The notes: generated by a model not told the origin, from the sequence alone. Shown: positions 38,546 through 62,769, numbered from the stretch's first letter. The stretch: DNA of 64,000 bases from Vermamoeba vermiformis (GCA_045837725.1 JBEWZL010000179.1:310001-374000); one strand, 5' to 3'. A program made the numbers and translations.

Positions 38546-41500
38546 ATGATGAACGGAAATAAGCCGGGTATTCAGGACCCGCTTAGGAGCGGTGCGATAT
38601 TTGGCGCCAATCCGAAACATCTCCGATCGCCAGTACCGCTGCACCATCTTTCGATGAATAACAAAAATAACTCGGCACCAAATTCTACTGAAAAAGGAGG
38701 AAACAATGCGCCTGCAGGGTATGAATTTAATTTTCAAAAAATAATGAAGCTCTATTACGCCGCGCATATTTTGGCTAATATTAATGGCCGCGAGTGAATA
38801 TTTATTATAGCCAATTTTAATAACATTTTTTCAGATTAATTCGGCCTAAGGCAACAAAAGCTGGATTAGGATCCCTTTCTTTTTCGTCCAGAGAGCCGAC
38901 AACCCCACAAAACCCCGCTCAAGCACGTAATACACCTACTAATGCTACCGTGATATCGAAGCAACCAGCTGGAGCGTCAAGGAACGTTCAGCAAATAAAT
39001 CAAAACTTCGACGCTCTCGTGAGAGCGAGCCCACTGCCTCAAGTAAGATAATAGCACCAAAATATTATATTAATTATTAGAATATTTTTTAATGTTTTTT
39101 TATCGCTAAAGATCGTTAATACGCAACGAGTTTCAAAGGCGACAATGCAAGTCAGTCCTCCGAAAAATTCCTCAATTGATGATGATATTTCTATGGGCCC
39201 GCCATCGCAAGATTTATTTGACGATCGATTGACGCAAGAGCATTCGTTACGCGACGACATAGTGTTCGATGAGGACGAGATGGATCTGCGTCAAGAAGAC
39301 GAGGAGGACACGCAGCATGATTTAAATGCGATTCCAGAATACGATGACGATGAAGAGATGGACGACAGTGTTAATAACACCAATGTCTCGCAGCGCAGCA
39401 AATCACAGCAAAGCAGCCCGAGGAAACAACAGCCTAAAGTGTCCAAGGCTACGATGGAACAACACTCGTCTTCATCGCGCAAGAACACGCCGAACAAGAC
39501 TCCCGAGAAATCTTCTGAAAAAGATAACTCGAGCAAAAAACCTTCGCCGACGAGATCATCGCAAAACAACAATAATAATAACAATAACAATAACAACGGT
39601 CAGAAGAAGGATCAACGACGCGATAATTCACCTCCTAAGGAGAGAACACCGACGAGTGACAAGACTGAGAATGTCAAAGGTAATTATGATCGATACGCCT
39701 TTATTTCAAGAGTACTAATTGAGTCACAGAAATTCAATTGATAAATTGGTACATCAAACCGGTCGAGAAAACTAAAGGTGTACAAGTGGAGGGATTCAAA
39801 CCTGATAACAATCTGGACGAAGAGCCAATTGTTTGGCATTCATCGACTGTTGCAGAACGAGTAGACAAGACGCACGTGAAGACAAAAGGAGGCTCAGTTT
39901 ATCGATTGCTGTAAGCTCAATCTCGTCGAATTATTTAATTACATTGATACTAACACTAATCAACAGCCGTAAAATCAATGCCGAGGCAACGCGTGTCCAT
40001 TTCTCGGAGAGTTTTGTTCGTGCTTTTACAGACGGTTTCCCAGCGTAAGTGTACCTTAGCCCTTTGCGTACTAGCGGTCATTAACACTCGTGACTTGAAG
40101 TAATTGGAGAGAGCTCATTAAAGAGCACTTTGAGCAAAAGGAAGCTGAAGAAGCCGCGGCCGAGGCCGAAGCCGAGGAAGCCACAGAAATGGACATGGAG
40201 GACGATCAAATGGAAGAAGTCACTCCGCGCAAACAGACAGCGAGACCTAGACCGAGAACTGTTGAAATGTTGAAGAAGTCGAAGCGAGACGACGAATTCA
40301 GATTGGAGCATGATGAAGAGGACAGCGAGGGCTCAGTCTCAGATGAAGATCTGCGAGAACTGCAGGAGGAAATTATGGTCTCAACGCCGTCCAATGCTGT
40401 ATTCAAAAAGCCAACTTCCACTAGCACCAAAAAGGCTCGTCGAAGAACAAGTCAGCACGATGGCGACGATCGATTCAGCACGCCCAAACATCAGTCTCAC
40501 TCGCCAGCAACTCCGACCTCGGGTCCTGGTGTAGTTCCTCCGAGCGAATTCAAAGTGTCATCACGTGGCCGCCATATTGTTCCGCCTCTCGAATACTGGC
40601 GATTACAGGCTGCCCGTACCGATGCTTATGGCAACTTGGTAACAGTCACTTTGGTAAGTAACGTCGAAATCTTATGATTGTAGCGATCTAATATAATGCC
40701 ATTGTAGGGTTCGCGCAATGACACTGCGCTATCTTCGCCGATTGGCATTGAAGGAGCAAGCCCTAGCTTCTTACGAGACTTGTCCAAGTCAGTTCAAAAA
40801 GACTCTAAATCGGATAAAGACGAGGAAGAAGAGAGTCCTAGCGTCTTACGAGACTCTTCCAAATCTAGTCAAAAAGAGTCATCCAAGCCGTCTCAAAAAG
40901 AATCATCCAAGCCGGCTCAAAAAGATTCATCTAAGTCGAGCCAAAAAGACTCATCGAAGTCCAGTCAAAAGAAGCGAAAGCGTACTTCCAGTGAAACTGA
41001 CGATATTGAACCTCCCTTACGCAAGAAAGCTAAACAAGCCAAAGATGTCACGACAAAGGTCGATGAAGTCGCTGAAGAGGTCGAAGAAAAGTCAGACGAG
41101 GAAAAAGTTCCGGAAGAGGAGGAAGAGGCTCTTGAGATAGAAAAAGTTTCCCCTGAAGAGGAGGAGCAACCTGAAATGGAGCTGCCCTTCGTGGACGAGA
41201 TCAATGAAAGCATTGGCACTAATGCTAGTGTTGAGGAGAGCCCAAACAAGTACGAGACACCTGTCAAGGGTCGTTCAACAAAGAAAGGCTCGTCTAAGCA
41301 ATCGACTAAGAAGGCTGAAGAACAGACCGAAAAAGAAAAGCCAGAGGAAGAGGAGCTTGACGAAGAAGAGCTGGCTCGTCGCAAAGAAGAGCTTGCCGAA
41401 AAGAAACGCGAAGAAAAGCGATTGGCAAGTGCAAAGAAACGAGCGGAAGAGCGTGAAAAGAACGCAGCGAAAAAGGCAGCTGAACAGCTACGACGAGCTG

Positions 41501-44500
41501 AGCGCAAGAAACGTGAGCAAGAGCGAAAGGAGGCCGAAGAAAAGCAAAAGGCTGAAGCCGAGGCCAAGCGCCTTGAGGAAGAGAAGAAGGCCAAAAAGGC
41601 CGAGGAAGAGAAGCGCAAGGCTGAAGAGAAGGCCGAAGAAAAGCGTAAAGCTGAAGCTAAGAAAAAGGCTGAAGAGGAGAAGCGAAAGGCCAAAGAGAAA
41701 AAGGAAGCTGAAGAAAAGAAGAAGGCTGACGAAGCGAAGCGCAAGGAACAGGAGCGATTAGATGAAGAAAAGCGCAAGGCAGACGAAGAGAAGCGCAAGG
41801 AAGAAAAGAGAAAGGCCGAAGAAAAGAAGAAGGCCGTCGAAGAAGAGAAGCGCAAAGAACAAGAGCGAAAGAAAGCTGAAGAGGATAAGAAAAAGAAGGA
41901 AGAGGAGCGACGCAAAGAGCAAGAGCGAAAGAAAGCCGAAGAAAAGCGCAAGGCTGAAGAGGAGAAACAACGTGCTGAAGAAGCCGAGAAGCGCAAGAAA
42001 GAGCAAGAGAAAAAGAAAGCTGATGCGAAGAAGGCCGAAGACGCCAAGAAACAAGAGAAGAAAAAAGCTGAAGAGGAGAAAAAGAAGCGAGACGAATCTC
42101 CCAAGAAGAGCTCTGAGTCTCCTCGAAAGAGCACGGACACTTCCAGGAAGAGCCTTGACTCGTCAAGGAAGAGTGCAGAGTCTCCTCGAAAGAGCGCTGA
42201 GAAGAAGAAACCCGAGCCTTCTGAGGCCCACGATGAAGTAGCAGATCTGAAGCGCTTGACTGTTTTGCGAGAGAAGCAAGCAGGTGGCACGAAGCTAACT
42301 GAAGAGGAGAAGAAAGAGGCTAAGCGATTAGCGATGAGAATCAAGCGCGCTGAAGAGCGTCGCACGAGTCTCTCTCCCGAGAAATCACCACGCAAGAAAG
42401 TGGGTGCTGTTGATGAATCAGAAGGCGAGTCTGAATCACCTGTCAAATCTTCGCGTTCTCGCCGAATGTCAATCTCGTCCGACGAGGACCGACAGACTCG
42501 CTCCAAGTCTCGATCAAAATCTCGTCCTAAGAGCTCAGCTAGCAGATCCGCTAGCCCTCGTCGTGAAACTCGCTCTGCCACTCCCAAGAAGAGTGCCAAG
42601 AAAACTTCACCAAGTAGATCGCGTAGTCCTCCTGCCAAGAGAGAGACGCGCTCTTCAACTCCCAAGAAGACACCGCGTTCAGCCTCGCCAAGCAGGTCTC
42701 GCAGTCCTCCCACAAAGAGAGAAACTCGTTCTTCGACACCAAAGAAGAGCGCTAAACGATCAGCATCTCCGAGCCGATCTCAGAGCCCGCCTGTTCAACG
42801 TGGTCGCTCTACAACACCTAAGAAGGCTCCTGCTCGTAAAGGTGCTTCAGCAAGTCGATCACGTAGTCCACCCAGCCAACGCGAGGCTCGTTCGCAGACA
42901 CCAAAGAAAGGTGCAAAGCGGTCCGCCTCACCTAGTCCCGAGGCTAGCACTCCCTCGCCGAAGAAGGCCAGCTCACAGGCTTCGGGCAGTCAGTCGCCTT
43001 CCATTGATGCTATTATACCTCGTCTCAATGAGCTGAGGGAAAAGCATGCTCAGAAGAAGCTTTCTGAGGAAGAGAAGAGGGAGATGAAACGATTGACCAT
43101 GCGTGTTAAGCGAGCTGAGGACCGTCAAAAGATCAGTGAAAAACGAAAGTCAGAGCAAGAGCGACGATCGCGGTCATCCAGCCCTCGCAAAGATAGCAGC
43201 AAGAAGTCTGCTAAGTCTTCTGAACAGTCCAGATCACGCAGTCCGCCAGCGAAGCGAGAGACTAGATCAATGAGCCCTCAGAAACCATCTCCAGCCAAGT
43301 CTAAAGCTAAGTCAAGCGATTCAAAGACCAAGAACAGCAGGGCGCGTTCAGGTTCACAATCACAAGAGCGATCTCGCAGCAGATCACCGCGTCGCGATTC
43401 AAGGTCGCCCAAGAAGAACACTCGCCGCGAGTCTGCTTCACCGAGTAGGTCTCGCAGCCCTCCTGCACGTGGACGGGAACGACGCGAGACTCGCTCAATG
43501 AGCCCAACAAAGACTCCTGATAACAAGTCTCGGAACAATAACAACAAAAATACTAAGAAGAGTTCCAGCAAGAAATCAGGAACTAAGAAGACGACACCCG
43601 AGAAGCCCACCGACGTGTTTACAGATGAGATTGAAAGTGATGTGATCATGGAAGAGAGCAGTCTCAGCGAGCCAAGCAGTCCCGCCAAGGAGAAAGAGAC
43701 CGACTCGCGAAGGACGTTCAACATTGAATTGAACTTGGAGAGCACTGAAGGTCAGGAGAAAGAGAGCGAGAATGACGAGGAAGAGGACGTTTGGACGCCC
43801 AGTGTAAGTTATTTATTGTCAGAGTTATTAGGCCGTATATAATAACGGTTGTTTCTCGGCAACAGCAAATCAAGGCTTTGCAGACTGCCCACCGCAAAGT
43901 AGACCCGAACACACCTTTGTTCTGGAAAGAAGTCGCCAAGTTGGTCAAGGGCAAGAACGCCGCTCAGTGCCGCAAAAAGTTTGAAGATCGGTACAAGACG
44001 CCTTCGTCTAAGACCAAGAAGACGAAGAAAGTGACCAAAGAGTTGTCACCCATCAACTTGGGTGCGAACAAGAAGACTGCCAAGTTCAAGCAAAAGGTCC
44101 GTCAGTTTGTGCAACGAGTAAGTAACGCGAACATGTGTAACATTAGTGCTGTGTTGACACGAGGTTCTGCAGGCTGCCGAGGCCGACGACAGTCACAAGG
44201 ACGCGTTCGAATCAACGCCGTTCAAGAACCGTTACGGCAACATCAACAGTGTGGATCTGAGCGGTGATGCCGAGATGACTGAGAACAACACAAATGTCAA
44301 CAACGTGTCAGCTGAGGATGAAATGGCCGTCGAGCACAGTGAAGCCAACGCCGCTGAGAGCCAAGCTGAGGCCATGGAGACAGAGCCAACCACTGGTGCT
44401 GTCAGCGCCAACAACACCAATGTGAATAATACCAACGAAGTGCCTTTGTCACAATCTCAAGCGCGAGATTTGATCGATGATGCGATCGAGAACATTGACA

Positions 44501-57357: not shown

Positions 57358-57540
57358 CAAGTAATGTAGTTCGAATATTATGTGGCATTAGTACTTCAGT
57401 ACATGTAAATATTAATTTGGTCGATTTTCTTTGACGATTTCTTTATTTTAAGCCACGTGCTCCAAGATCCTTTACCTACGTATCGCCCCTGACAATTTTT
57501 CGAATTTTTGTTGTTTTATTGTATCATATTAAGTTACAAC

Positions 57541-57784
57541 ATGAACCACAAAGCTATTTTTGTCGTTTGCTTCATTTTCTCTTTGGCCGCATCTGGCCTC
57601 GCAGACAATCAACATCTTACCCTTCAAACTCAGTGGATCGAGGACATGTGCGAGGCTGGCGTTGACTGCTTCGCTAAAGAGTAATATATATATATATTAA
57701 GTTTATCGTCCAGTATTTAGCATAAGTTCACTTTACAGCAAAAGTGTACCGATCGAGATCTGTGCAAGCAGGTTTTTAAAATAA
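57541..57784 (+). CDS. Small putative secreted Cys-containing peptide (about 61 aa, 2 exons)
   Basis: MNHKAIFVVCFIFSLAASGLA looks like a signal peptide, followed by DNQHLTLQTQWIEDMCEAGVDCFAKD and, after a GT-AG intron at 57681-57738, KSVPIEICASRFLK*. Confidence 0.55.
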
Positions 57785-57812: not shown

Positions 57813-59507
57813 TTAATTAGCAAAATCAGGATGATGTTTGAGCTTCTTTTGTAACGCTTTCAATCGCCAATCAATCTCAGAAGTGATCAGCCTAAATTCC
57901 TCTTCTTTCAACGCTGCGAAAATGCACTCGCTCTTGGAATTGCTTTCTTCTAATTTAATGCTAAATGGATGGCCCATTCCTGGCAATTCTTCTTCGTTTG
58001 ATTCAAAGGTGACTACCTTCGTAAGATCGATTTCTTCGATAGGCTTTTCTTGGGCACTCTGGAGTAAATATTCCTCGTGCGTTAGATACAAATTCATATC
58101 ATTGATGCAAAGAATACAAACCTTGTCAGATTTGACGACCCGATAAAAGGAGATCTTGCCGCTTTGAAGCACAAAGATTCGCTTCTTCCAATTCTTGCCA
58201 CCTATTATGTAAATAACACGTAAATAACTTGATTTCTTACTTTAATTAAAGTATAAGATTGCCGTTTCATCCTTAATTTGGACATACTTCGGTGAAGCAC
58301 TTGACACTTGATCCCGCGCTTGGCTTCTTCTACTCCTTGCACCATTATCGACGCTACTTTACCGAACAATGCGTACCATGCCTCTTGTAAAGGTATAGTG
58401 ATCTATCACAATTTAAGCAATTAATAAAATCAGCAAGGGATAAGATTTTCGGCATTTTGTGCGACAGTTTAAAATATACCTCGTTGGATCCCAACACTTT
58501 CTTCAATGTTTCTACTAAGACGACACCGAAAGCTTGATAATCCTTCACTTCAACGCCATAGAACATATGATGAGCGCCTAGTATTTTAACATTAAATAAA
58601 GGTATAAATTTTAATCGCTTCATTGAATATTTGACAGCTTTGGCCGAAACAAGGCAGTTTCAGCGTATTCGATTAATTAAATAAAGTTTCGAGTGATTTA
58701 TCCGAATTTTAGTGCTATTGCTAAGATATTACGCACGTACCAAGCTTTTTGAACATTGCGGTTAGTCGATCCAAATTATCCAAGCCCTTAATCAATGAGT
58801 TCATCATCGTAATTAGTGCCCTAACTTGAGTAGGCATGCCTTTGTCTTCAAATAATGTTTTGGCGCTCGGGCTGATTGTGAACAACGTTGCATAAAACTC
58901 GCTGTGATTTAGTTAGTAACCGAATCAATTATATCGGCTGATATTCATATGATTAGTATATTAATACGCACTCGAAAAATTGAACAGTCTTCTCATTGCC
59001 GCCGTCCGTAATCTTTTTCCAAGACTCTTTGATCGCTGATTTTTGTTCATCTGGTACTGTCCATAATTCCTCTCGTTCTCGTGGCGTTATTGTATTATTT
59101 CGGGACCGACCATACTCTTCTGAATTTTGGGACTGAGATTCTGACAGAGAGCTAGACTCGAACGATGGATCGGGGCTCTACGTAGTTATAAATAAATTAA
59201 TTAATTATTGCTGCACAATATTATAGACTATACGTACGGAGACTGGTGAGTATTTAATTAGTGCATCGTTCTCGTGAGTTAAAACGCGGTGCAACTCTGC
59301 TTCGATCAGCAATGGAAGATTGAGCCTTTGAAGCTGCTGAGGCTGTAGTCGCATCAAATGGCACATTTTAACAACCATGTTTTGATTAAACTTCTCGACA
59401 AGGTCTGGAAGGGCGGCTCGATCCAATCCGTGCGCTCGGGTGATTCCATCGAGCACATCGGAGATGGACGAGTTTGGTCCTAATACATATGGAGTGCTGG
59501 TCGACAT
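57813..59507 (-). CDS. SAM-like + globin + PH domain fusion protein, multi-exon
   Basis: Globin: AIKESWKKI, EFYATLFTISPSAKTLF, TQVRALITMM, KLGAHHMFYGV..KDYQAFGVVLVETLKKVLG, LQEAWYALF. PH: KNWKKRIFVLQSGKISFY, PIEEIDL, HPFSIKL, IFAA. The N-terminal helical segment resembles SAM. Confidence 0.8.
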
Positions 59508-59637
59508 GTGCTAGTGATTACACAAAATGAATATTTAAAAACGGCCATGTCCATAAATGGAAACAATTTTCGTTGAAATTTTTACCTACGAGAAAACAAA
59601 AAAGAAAAAATTCAGTCCAGCGCTACTTCACAGCACC

Positions 59638-61298
59638 ATGACCACAGTAGCCACGCATATCCCGCCTGTTATAGGGTTCAGGCAACAATTTGATGCGTAT
59701 TATCGGGGTGAAGTCGAGAAGCTTAAGACTAGGCTAAAGGCAACTATCAACAACGTGCAACAGAATAGAGAAGATCTCGAAAACCCTATTTATCTCGCAT
59801 TAAAAGAACGAGCCAAATATCAATTTTTCAAACGAGTCGATCCGACACGCACAGAGTTGGATGTAATCAAAGATCTACGACCGTTTGCGGAGACAATGCT
59901 GGATTTGCTCGCCCAGCTCCTGCGATTCCAATTCGATGGAAACTTATTTAAAGAGAAGAAGATAGCATTAGAGAAGCACATTGATAAAGAACGCGGTGCA
60001 AACAAGCTGAAGGACGACCCACACCTGTTAAATCTGACATCAGCTTTCTTTTCACACTTGGACCATATAAGAATCTTAGGCAATATTAATACCCACGAAA
60101 ATAGAATGAAAGAAGAAACATTTGTAGAATATATGATGGCCACCCTCGGAGCCTTGCGGATGGTGACGATTTTCTTAGACTTATTAGAAAGCACTGGCTT
60201 CAAATTATTAGCTCAAGCTAGCAGAGAAAAAAATCTACCAAAGGTAAATAATCATAAATATTAGAAGCGCGTTATTTAATTCAAATTCAACTTTTCGAAG
60301 CTTACCTACGTAAATTTTGACATGGCCAGAATTAAATCAGATATTTTTTTTCTCACTTAAATGGTATTATTTACCACACTGCTGATACATTTCGGCTACG
60401 AAATCATTACTTACTTTTTTGGTGACAGATCCAGATGGCCGCCGTGCAAACCAAATTACCCTATCAAACCCAACGCCCAAATTTATATGACCAATATGCA
60501 ACCCCTACGCCCCAGACGACGCCCCAACCCATGTACAGAGATTCACTACCGACATCAAAGACCACTTTAGAGCAGCAGATGGAGGTTCAACAACTTCTTG
60601 CCACCATGTTCCCCGCCAACCAAAAGATGACAAATACCGCTACATTGCCCAATATTCGACAATCTACCAACGCATATGCCTCTACCAACCCTACCAAGAT
60701 AACATCACCTCAACCAAATTACGTGCAAACCGTGCCCCGCAGTTCTTCGCCTCGTTACGAGGCAGCACTGCAAACCCAGCCCGACCAGATAGAAGATTAC
60801 GACCAAGCATATTATAACGAACAGATGTATAATGCCCACTACACCCAACCTACCTACACCACTCCAATACTGCCGACCCCAACTACGCCTGTGACACCTA
60901 CAATCACCCAACAATCTTCCCAGTACACTCAACCCGCCTATACGACCCACAATGTATTTCCTACCCGAAATACCCAATTTATCAACTCCCAGTACCTCAC
61001 TTCCAACGTTGCCGCCGATCCAGTCGGATTTCAAGCCCTCTCGAGCACGATCCGGATTAAGCCCTCCTTGACACTTGACCAAGCCGAATTTTTGAAGACT
61101 GAAGAAGACTTTGAATGGACAAGCATCGATTTCAAGCGCGAGTTTTGTTTCCTTCACTTCGCGAGTGGCGAGGCAGCTAGTCGCGCGCTACATTACTTCG
61201 ACTCTATCAAAAAGATCCCCGAGTACTCGTTCCTGAGGCACTACGACGCGAGCATGTACTTGAAGCCACAAGGAAAGGATGAAAAGCGAAAGTACTGA
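59638..61298 (+). CDS. DUF4145/HEPN-like domain + Q/T/P/Y-rich linker + C-terminal RRM-like domain
   Basis: Exon 1 ends in phase 0 at 60243 (gtaaat donor) and splices in frame to the 60435 ORF. It contains LRPFAE and LDHIRILGNINTHE. The C-terminal IRIKP...IDFKREFCFLHFASGEAASRAL is RNP1-like. Confidence 0.65.
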
Positions 61299-61513
61299 CT
61301 TAAACCCATGTACAGTAATCGGTTTGATCCGTACAAAAGAGGCCGGATCAAGCTTAACTTGTAAATTATCTGAATTAAACCTGCGGATTCTACATAAAAG
61401 CTAGTATATGATGTTATTTTAATCGTTGCAAGTCGCTTCCTTGAATGCTGAGGAAAAATTTCTTTTCTGTTCAGTAACTTACCTACGAAACAACTCGGGT
61501 CAAATATCATACC

Positions 61514-62699
61514 ATGGATTTAAGATTAAAAGATTTGCACGTCTTCATTACAGGAAGCGCTGGGGATATTGGCAAGTCGTAGGGCTACATCCGCAACAAC
61601 GAATATTTTTCTCTTATCCAAATATAGATATAATTAATTTCACCTTCGCTATTACAGGCCGAGCTTGCGCAACAAAATATCTTGAGCACGGAGCAAAAGT
61701 CACATTGCATTATAATTCTCAAGCCAATACATTAGCTTCATTGACTGAAACGTAGGTATCTAAACGAAGGATTAATTTTATTTAATTGCTACGTGCTCTC
61801 AAATCTCAATACCTATGACATTCGATCTGCTCGTGCGACTTTTCACCCAACTTTGCTAGGTACCCCACGCGCACAACACTGGTGCAAGCTGACTTATCCA
61901 ATGAAGAACAAACTATTCAAGCTATGAAGACGGCCGTAGAAAAGTTTGGCCCGTGTCACATTCTTGTGGCTAATCACGCCATTTACGAAACAAAGGAAGT
62001 GCCTATTCAAGACATGAGCCTCGAGCAGTTCAAACACACTATTGATGTGAACTTAGTAGGAGTATTTTTAATCACGCGAGAGGTAAGCATAAGCGGCACG
62101 TGTCAAACTCAACAACACCCTACAATCATCGTTTAATTGACAGTTCATGAAACAACTCAAAGCACATGCTGATACATTGACACCCGAGCAAAAGTTGACC
62201 ACGCACGCTAGTATTGGTACGAGAATATGTTAACAACTTAAATTGAGGTCAACGTGTTAATGCTCTTTGTAGCTATCATTGGCAGCACAGCGGGCAAGTT
62301 TGGCGAGGCCAATCACATTGACTACAGTGCTAGCAAATCAGCACTCATGTACGGCTTCAATTATTCGCTGAAGAACGAGATCATCAGAATATTACCTCGT
62401 GCGACTGTCAATGTTGTAGCACCTGGGTACGTCTACAAAGTAATTGTTTAGTATGAACAGCACTCATATCATACTGCAGTTGGGTCCGTACATCGATGGC
62501 CGAAGAAGCTATTGCCCAAGGACTGCACTACAAAGCACTGCGTACCATGCCATTAGCTAAGGTCGCAACAGTTGAAGACTGTTCGAATGCAGTGTTGATG
62601 GTCACTTCACCTGTGACTGGCGGTCATATGAGTGGCGTAGTACTATCAATTGATGGTGGTATGGAAGGTCGTGTGTTGCACGACTTCAGCCAGCAATAA
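61514..62699 (+). CDS. Classical short-chain dehydrogenase/reductase
   Basis: VFITGSAGDIGRACA, ILVANHA, IIGSTAGKFGEA, DYSASK, VNVVAPGWV and SGVVLSIDGGME. Confidence 0.9.
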
Positions 62700-62769
62700 A
62701 AGCACGTGACATCCAAAAAATTAAGACCCGTTGTCATTTTGTTTGGTATTATTTATTAAGTTAAACACC

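Follow-up and report, generated by a model that had tools for sequence, protein, structure and literature searches.

The stretch of Vermamoeba vermiformis DNA considered here, called the window in what follows, is 64,000 nucleotides (nt) long (GCA_045837725.1, JBEWZL010000179.1:310001-374000). Its plus strand carries a two-exon gene whose spliced product of 491 amino acids (aa), encoded by 202 + 289 codons, runs from the ATG at 59638 to the TGA at 61296-61298. We read this product as a relative of the DUF4145 family, within the HEPN superfamily, joined through a linker rich in Q, T, P, and Y to a domain resembling the RNA recognition motif (RRM), and as a candidate RNA-targeting ribonuclease (RNase), a reading to which we give about even chances. 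The architecture itself rests on sub-threshold but specific sequence evidence. A gene of this layout had been proposed in an earlier note made from the sequence alone, and the features that it quoted, namely, the ATG, LRPFAE, the motif with R145 and H153, EFCFLHF, and the stop, all lie where it placed them. The parts of the gene are the following, with positions counted from the first letter of the window.

59638..60243, plus strand: exon 1, 202 codons from the ATG
59638..59847, plus strand: residues 1-70, N-terminal helices preceding the four-helix bundle, assigned to no family (model helices 11-42, 44-47, 50-58, and 62-67)
59848..60231, plus strand: residues 71-198, predicted four-helix bundle, DUF4145-like (HEPN superfamily), with helices 73-94, 101-120, 128-151, and 159-184
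59878..59892, plus strand: R81-P-F-A-E85, aligned with R-x3-[EQ] of the DUF4145 helix in a low-stringency profile alignment
60070..60096, plus strand: R145-I-L-G-N-I-N-T-H153, the DUF4145 signature R-x2-G-N-x3-H, putative RNase active site
60244..60428, plus strand: intron, 185 nt, GT..AG, holding one copy (60302-60310) of the 9-mer TTACCTACG
60429..61298, plus strand: exon 2, 289 codons plus the TGA stop
60429..60998, plus strand: residues 203-392, low-complexity linker (~190 aa)
61038..61268, plus strand: residues ~406-482, RRM-like domain (~80 aa), predicted as beta1-alpha1-beta2-beta3-alpha2 plus an extra helix
61134..61160, plus strand: K-R-E-F-C-F-L-H-F, RNP1-like, predicted strand beta3, then GEAASRAL, where alpha2 begins

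The gene is transcribed, and its two exons are spliced in frame, as the earlier note had held. The donor reads AAG/GTAAAT after 60243 and the acceptor ...GACAG/ before 60429 (slashes mark splice points). The start at 59638 is common to the relatives P0004 and L001, and L001 has nothing corresponding to the in-frame ATG that lies 27 codons farther upstream (59557). A 1192-nt contig from run X1 aligns with 60012-60241 and 60427-61385, leaving a 185-nt GT..AG gap (shifting the cut by +2 gives 60243/60429). X1 is a contig set whose RNA nature is only guessed; it behaves as cDNA, because its contigs are also missing three introns (61752-61859, 62081-62141, and 62426-62478, within 1-3 nt) of the dehydrogenase gene that lies downstream. 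In three raw RNA-seq runs recorded as RNA under the same species label, X21, X22, and X23, the junction is bridged from 60233 to 60447 by 6, 5, and 6 reads, respectively (17 in total), and depth is 0 in the bin 60236-60352, inside the intron. These reads come from a relative rather than from this strain, because nearly all of them are only 90-95% alike to the window, and the junction reads carry the relative's own diverged letters between the two sides (…AAAG/ATCCAGATGACTACC…). A predicted protein from a relative, P0006, likewise spans the junction (…REKNLPK/IQMT…). The junction that was to be sought by RNA-seq is thus present, with the intron at 60244-60428; the position 60429 that had been given as its end already belongs to exon 2, as its first base.

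The same data bear on whether the two open reading frames (ORFs) might instead be separate genes, the second with a promoter inside the supposed intron at the 60302 copy of TTACCTACG and a start at ATG 60435. That 9-mer stands 35-69 nt upstream of three plus-strand ATGs, and the protein P0005 is called from MAAVQ..., both of which favor such a division. The transcript contig and the 17 reads connect the exons, however, P0006 crosses the exon junction, reads begin within the intron in none of the runs, and the three RNA-seq runs have an intron depth of 0, so that two separate transcripts, which the earlier note had named as fatal to its proposal, now appear extremely improbable, although there may be a minor short isoform. 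P0005, from a near-identical relative, begins at an internal Met of exon 2 and reads through the stop (…EKRKYW LKPMY…), evidently having been called with TGA as W; both peculiarities appear to be artefacts of calling genes on a transcript contig, not biology.

Within exon 1, LRPFAE corresponds to residues 80-85 (59875-59892), and HLDHIRILGNINTHE contains R145 (60070-60072) and H153 (60094-60096). The pattern R..GN...H to which these two residues belong is shared by 24 of 30 bacterial DUF4145 domains. It goes beyond chance, because shuffling or reversing exon 1 recreated it in only 1 of 2001 cases. It had been feared that a G rather than an R before the N could reduce activity. That concern proves unfounded, as G-N is the DUF4145 consensus in those same 24 domains and the spacing R-x7-H is that of R146 and H154 in RAZR (PD-T7-4), a bacterial anti-phage protein combining a zinc finger with a DUF4145 HEPN RNase (PMC13017515). 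On both counts the motif is of the intact family type. An R...[EQ] pair occurs 35-80 residues upstream of the signature in 23 of the 24 signature-bearing DUF4145 domains and 64 residues upstream here, and a low-stringency hhalign alignment pairs R81 and E85 with the R and E of the DUF4145 helix; this match carries little weight, since so loose a pattern occurs 5 times within exon 1. AlphaFold, run on the single sequence (pLDDT 67.2, pTM 0.66), predicts a bundle of four helices, in which the signature sits where helix 128-151 gives way to the loop leading to helix 159-184. The main text of a HEPN survey locates the Rx4-6H motif at the same position, helix 3's end and the loop that follows (PMC3710099).

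Profile searches point in the same direction. DUF4145 is the sole Pfam family matched in all 3 of the orthologues (E 0.008 and 16.7 bits for the window, 0.0029 and 18.0 for P0004, and 0.0033 and 17.9 for L001). A DUF4145 profile of our own, built from 30 bacterial domains out of a sample of 201 bacterial genomes, 33 of them with the family, gave 14.8 bits for the window domain (14.8-15.5 overall), a score reached by none of 2000 shuffles (maximum, 7.1), while the reversed sequence scored -0.8. Among 1022 background ORFs of at least 60 aa, taken from the window and 31 unrelated loci, the exon-1 ORF alone scored high (14.5 bits; next best, 4.3). Comparison with this profile by hhalign gave a probability of 64.6% and an E value of 6.3e-5 around the signature. 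The best BLASTP pair, L010, is 33-35% identical over 77-78 residues (query 80-155), a span that includes both motifs. The look-alikes of the N-terminal domain in a language-model Atlas are unnamed bacterial clusters at 0.91-0.92, the named ones being RnlA/HEPN_RnaseLS at 0.88-0.89, which we treat as a lead only.

Several observations weigh against reading the protein as a HEPN relative and RNase, and we collect them here. The scores of 16.7-18.0 bits fall short of the Pfam gathering score for DUF4145 (PF13643), 23.1 bits, and because of this the domain is termed DUF4145-like rather than filed as a member of the family. The confident hhalign alignment spans just 24 columns. Fold searches with the single-sequence model of the domain returned generic four-helix bundles with no HEPN singled out, the PADLOC models gave 0 matches, and a PDB sequence search of the domain gave none at E <= 10. 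All relatives are close (N- and C-terminal domains 87-93% identical), and for this reason the conservation of the motif residues adds little. Finally, the neighboring PH-domain, globin, and short-chain dehydrogenase genes offer no hint of a defense context. Among further searches, PHROGs gave only E 0.26-0.29, NCBIfam gave only E >= 0.04, a profile of alignment A1 yielded a single noise match in the PDB (E 2.6), and a homodimer prediction for residues 68-202 (score 0.00, mark 0.32) is uninformative on pairing. The DUF4145/HEPN resemblance proposed at the outset thus survives as a sub-threshold one, carried by the sole Pfam match, our own profile, and hhalign, and it stops short of the gathering score. 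As for the structural match to HEPN anticipated with it, the single-sequence model is a four-helix bundle whose fold-search matches were generic four-helix bundles.

Some of these same points suit another explanation, in which the N-terminal domain is an unrelated four-helix bundle, matched to DUF4145 by convergence or chance, in a lineage-specific RNA- or protein-binding factor: the match lies under the Pfam cut-off, the confident profile-profile alignment is limited to 24 columns, and the structural neighbors are generic (chemoreceptor ligand-binding domains, vinculin, and CCM3). Neither the shuffles nor any of the 1021 other background ORFs come near the score, however, DUF4145 is the single Pfam match in all three orthologues, and the two motifs are collinear with those of DUF4145 at a plausible spacing. 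We consider an unrelated bundle unlikely, at roughly one chance in five, and the N-terminal domain probably homologous to DUF4145, on the evidence of its sequence. Were the HEPN likeness spurious, the gene would encode a lineage-specific RNA-binding protein of modest interest.

The gene family is tiny, with very few relatives. When 1.84 billion representatives were searched exhaustively by phmmer with exon 1, the sole match was P0004 (93% identity). Exon 2, used in a word-index search, retrieved 4 proteins from 285 candidates (98, 73, 69, and 59% identity); longer word-index searches found no relative among 1246 candidates and none among 111. Of 273 pattern matches in a metagenome scan, L001 and L002 were the 2 that could be confirmed, and both are syntenic with the window in having, in this order, the PH-domain gene, the present gene, and the dehydrogenase gene. 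No paralogue was detected by tblastn within the window. A 24-residue, 63% match to residues 10-33 in a proteobacterial metagenome-assembled genome (L003, 1001-1072) was rejected as chance, being too short and in a genome without a DUF4145 match. Between the window and L001, the N-terminal domain is 89.1% and the C-terminal domain 88.9% identical, whereas only 78 of 172 aligned linker residues are identical; synonymous sites approach saturation (pS 0.57-0.71), and exon 1 has an omega of 0.027, the C-terminal domain 0.068, and the linker 0.325. These identity and omega figures describe two domains under strong purifying selection with a rapidly changing linker between them.

The linker is composed of 17.9% T, 14.2% Q, 12.1% P, and 8.4% Y, with Q, T, P, Y, N, and S together making up 64.7%, and is probably disordered. 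Beyond it lies the C-terminal domain, which is 87-89% identical among 4 relatives and in which EFCFLHF (61140-61160) is followed by GEAASRAL. A model of this domain from a 5-sequence alignment, of moderate confidence (pLDDT 65.6), has, in its own numbering, beta strand 17-20, alpha helix 26-35, beta strands 40-46 and 49-54, alpha helix 57-70, and a helix at 74-81; strand beta4 is not predicted, and the last helix is additional to alpha2. By title, 35 of the 44 Foldseek matches listed for this model are of RRM type, the best of them PTBP1 RRM1 (E 0.013, probability 1.00). Also among the 44 are 2 ribosomal particles and 7 riboswitch, ribozyme, or aptamer co-crystals, whose protein chain we take to be the U1A module; none of the 44 has E <= 0.001. 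Every named Atlas look-alike of the domain belongs to the RRM clan (0.82-0.86).

For the C-terminal domain, Pfam gave no family at E <= 10 with P0002, P0003, P0005, P0007, and P0008, and with P0006 only a noise match to SCIMP (E 0.21). An RRM_1 profile built from 30 bacterial RRM_1 (PF00076) domains gave only 2.5-3.9 bits and an hhalign probability of 2%, hence no significant match to the RRM clan, and in its ranking of the 225 window ORFs the exon-2 ORF lies outside the top 10. (The best window match of this profile, an ORF near 44157, is itself at noise level, 3.8 bits.) What the profile aligned was just K-R-E-F-C-F-L-H-F-A-S-G-E-A-A-S-R-A-L, to RNP1 and alpha2. In RRMs, consensus patterns are recognized as the RNP1 octamer on beta3 and the RNP2 hexamer on beta1. 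The RNP1-like R-E-F-C-F-L-H-F keeps the two central aromatics (F441 and F443) and the flanking positions and lacks the G and G/A, and at the RNP2 position, I-R-I-K-P-S, the aromatic residue is replaced. For the RRM-like C terminus that had been predicted, support comes from a predicted fold of moderate confidence, with listed Foldseek matches that are mostly RRMs, and not from a Pfam or profile match.

The alternative to an RNA-binding RRM is a ferredoxin-like (beta-alpha-beta) module for binding a protein or a small ligand, such as an ACT-like or MzrA-like domain. The predominance of RRMs among the Foldseek matches listed, the RRM-clan membership of all named Atlas look-alikes, and the alignment of the segment just given with RNP1 and alpha2 of RRM_1 all speak against it, and we would put it at about one chance in four. 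An RRM-like fold for the C-terminal domain is fairly likely on the strength of the model; that the domain binds RNA is about evenly balanced.

Taken together, the two domains suggest a most likely mechanism, each functional step of which we infer from family knowledge, as we do a role in defense or RNA quality control, or any biological role at all. The RRM-like domain, perhaps aided by the linker, would deliver RNA to the HEPN-like domain. As in other HEPN RNases, two copies of the latter would associate and together make up a composite active site independent of metal. This site would cleave single-stranded RNA to leave 2',3'-cyclic phosphate ends, and the low-complexity linker may favor assembly. 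We judge RNase activity of the putative active site to fall slightly short of an even chance.

The same layout could serve a protein that does not cut. The N-terminal domain would then be derived from HEPN/DUF4145 but act as a dimerizing or RNA-sensing module, and the protein would be an RNA-binding scaffold of ribonucleoprotein granules, its linker driving assembly. The Q/T/P/Y/N/S content of the linker would fit this, as would a gene context not of defense type; RNase activity is itself reasoned from the family, and inactive HEPN domains have been described in eukaryotes, with that of Swt1 proposed as one (main text of PMC3710099). On the other hand, the motif is usually lost in inactive HEPN domains according to the same text, whereas here, and in 3 of 3 N-domain orthologues, the R and H that RAZR requires are intact at the same spacing, together with the G-N. 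A noncutting scaffold seems to us improbable, though slightly less so than an unrelated bundle.

A bolder extension of the RNase reading, and a doubtful one, is that a narrow eukaryotic lineage acquired from bacteria an abortive-infection-type DUF4145 HEPN RNase like RAZR and remodeled it with an RRM-like sensor of RNA and a condensate-forming linker. Such an RNase would be triggered by RNA, activated by assembly, and able to halt translation when viruses or transposons attack or under stress. If true, a family of bacterial immune effectors not reported so far in eukaryotes would have its counterpart there.

The surroundings of the gene and the further copies of the 9-mer are as follows.

57472-57480, 59582-59590, 60302-60310, and 61479-61487, plus strand: copies of TTACCTACG, all within 4 kb
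57813-58241: PH-domain gene (Pfam E 6.7e-6)
58354-59510, minus strand: globin gene of several exons, just upstream (Pfam Globin E 6.7e-5 for 58721-58912)
61514-62700, plus strand: short-chain dehydrogenase gene, downstream (Pfam adh_short E 8.6e-14), syntenic in L001 and L002
L001, 4485-4493, minus strand, and L002, 588-596, minus strand: TTACCTACG in the relatives

The 4 exact copies of TTACCTACG compare with 0.15 expected in the window, and 0 of 100 shuffles reach 4. Three of them lie 69, 56, and 35 nt upstream of the plus-strand ATGs at 57541, 59638 (the present gene), and 61514 (the dehydrogenase gene), respectively, and the fourth is in the intron. The 9-mer may be a promoter element or transcription-factor site, the intronic copy possibly marking a minor internal promoter. 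The introns of L001 and L002 contain the 12-mer TTACCTACGTAA in opposite orientation, though these introns are otherwise unalignable. The ATG at 57541 opens a signal-peptide-like ORF, a putative gene. The genome is compact; genes in the window are closely spaced, with GT..AG introns of 53-185 nt, and this gene structure gives a fungus-like impression. The region 40001-44000 has an unusual composition (GC 0.48-0.52, compared to ~0.42 elsewhere, and AT skew of +0.31 to +0.42). No Rfam match was found in the window.

The earlier note had not recognized this architecture among characterized eukaryotic proteins, and a eukaryotic fusion of DUF4145-like and RRM-like domains is indeed not in print within the literature that we searched, although Additional file 1 of PMC3710099 may list eukaryotic members. 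Judged by titles and the beginnings of abstracts, the papers in that literature that mention DUF4145 all deal with prokaryotes, phages, or microbial communities, and the matches listed for HEPN, RNA recognition motif, and eukaryotes together were all papers and reviews on CRISPR or defense. If the reading holds, an expressed and strongly constrained eukaryotic gene joins a DUF4145-type domain to an RNA-binding module. It would then be one more case of bacterial immune modules reused in eukaryotes, and a small, tractable protein in which to study the targeting of RNA by a HEPN site.

The C-terminal domain resembles canonical RRMs such as those of PTBP1 (RRM1), U1A, hnRNP Q/R, and Npl3, its best Foldseek neighbors, in its predicted beta-alpha-beta-beta-alpha order, in the two aromatics of its RNP1-like strand, and in an alpha2 that begins GEAASRAL. 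It differs from them in having no Pfam RRM match, no aromatic at RNP2 (IRIKPS), no predicted beta4, and an extra helix past alpha2. The HEPN proteins known from eukaryotes include the KEN domains of RNase L and Ire1, Swt1, and sacsin (PMC3710099, main text). As the present N-terminal domain is proposed to do, their HEPN domains act on or sense RNA and are metal independent where active, but they belong to other HEPN families, have the canonical Rx4-6H motif, and are attached to other partners (kinase or PIN) (PMC3710099). None of the RNase L/Ire1 KEN, Swt1, and sacsin HEPN families is matched by the present protein in Pfam.

Nearer at hand is the Pfam DUF4145 family itself, which the survey describes from bacteria, archaea, and double-stranded DNA viruses, for example, at the N termini of large restriction or helicase proteins; the term "RRM" is absent from its main text, and so is any RRM fusion of DUF4145 (PMC3710099). 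The present domain agrees with this family in R-x2-G-N-x3-H, the upstream R-x3-[EQ], the predicted helical bundle, and domain size, and departs from it in an inter-motif insert of 64 residues, compared to mostly 41-50, and in a eukaryotic host.

The closest characterized comparison is with RAZR, whose DUF4145 domain cleaves single-stranded RNA and whose defense is abolished by changing R146 or H154 to alanine (PMC13017515). RAZR is bacterial, assembles as a 24-mer, and senses phage ring proteins through an N-terminal Cys4 zinc ribbon (PMC13017515), whereas the present gene is eukaryotic and spliced, and its product, with a Pfam DUF4145 match below cut-off and no PADLOC match, has a C-terminal RRM-like partner behind the ~190-aa low-complexity linker. 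The two proteins are alike in pairing a DUF4145-type domain that has the R-x7-H spacing (R146/H154 in RAZR, R145/H153 here) with a second, noncatalytic domain attached through a linker.
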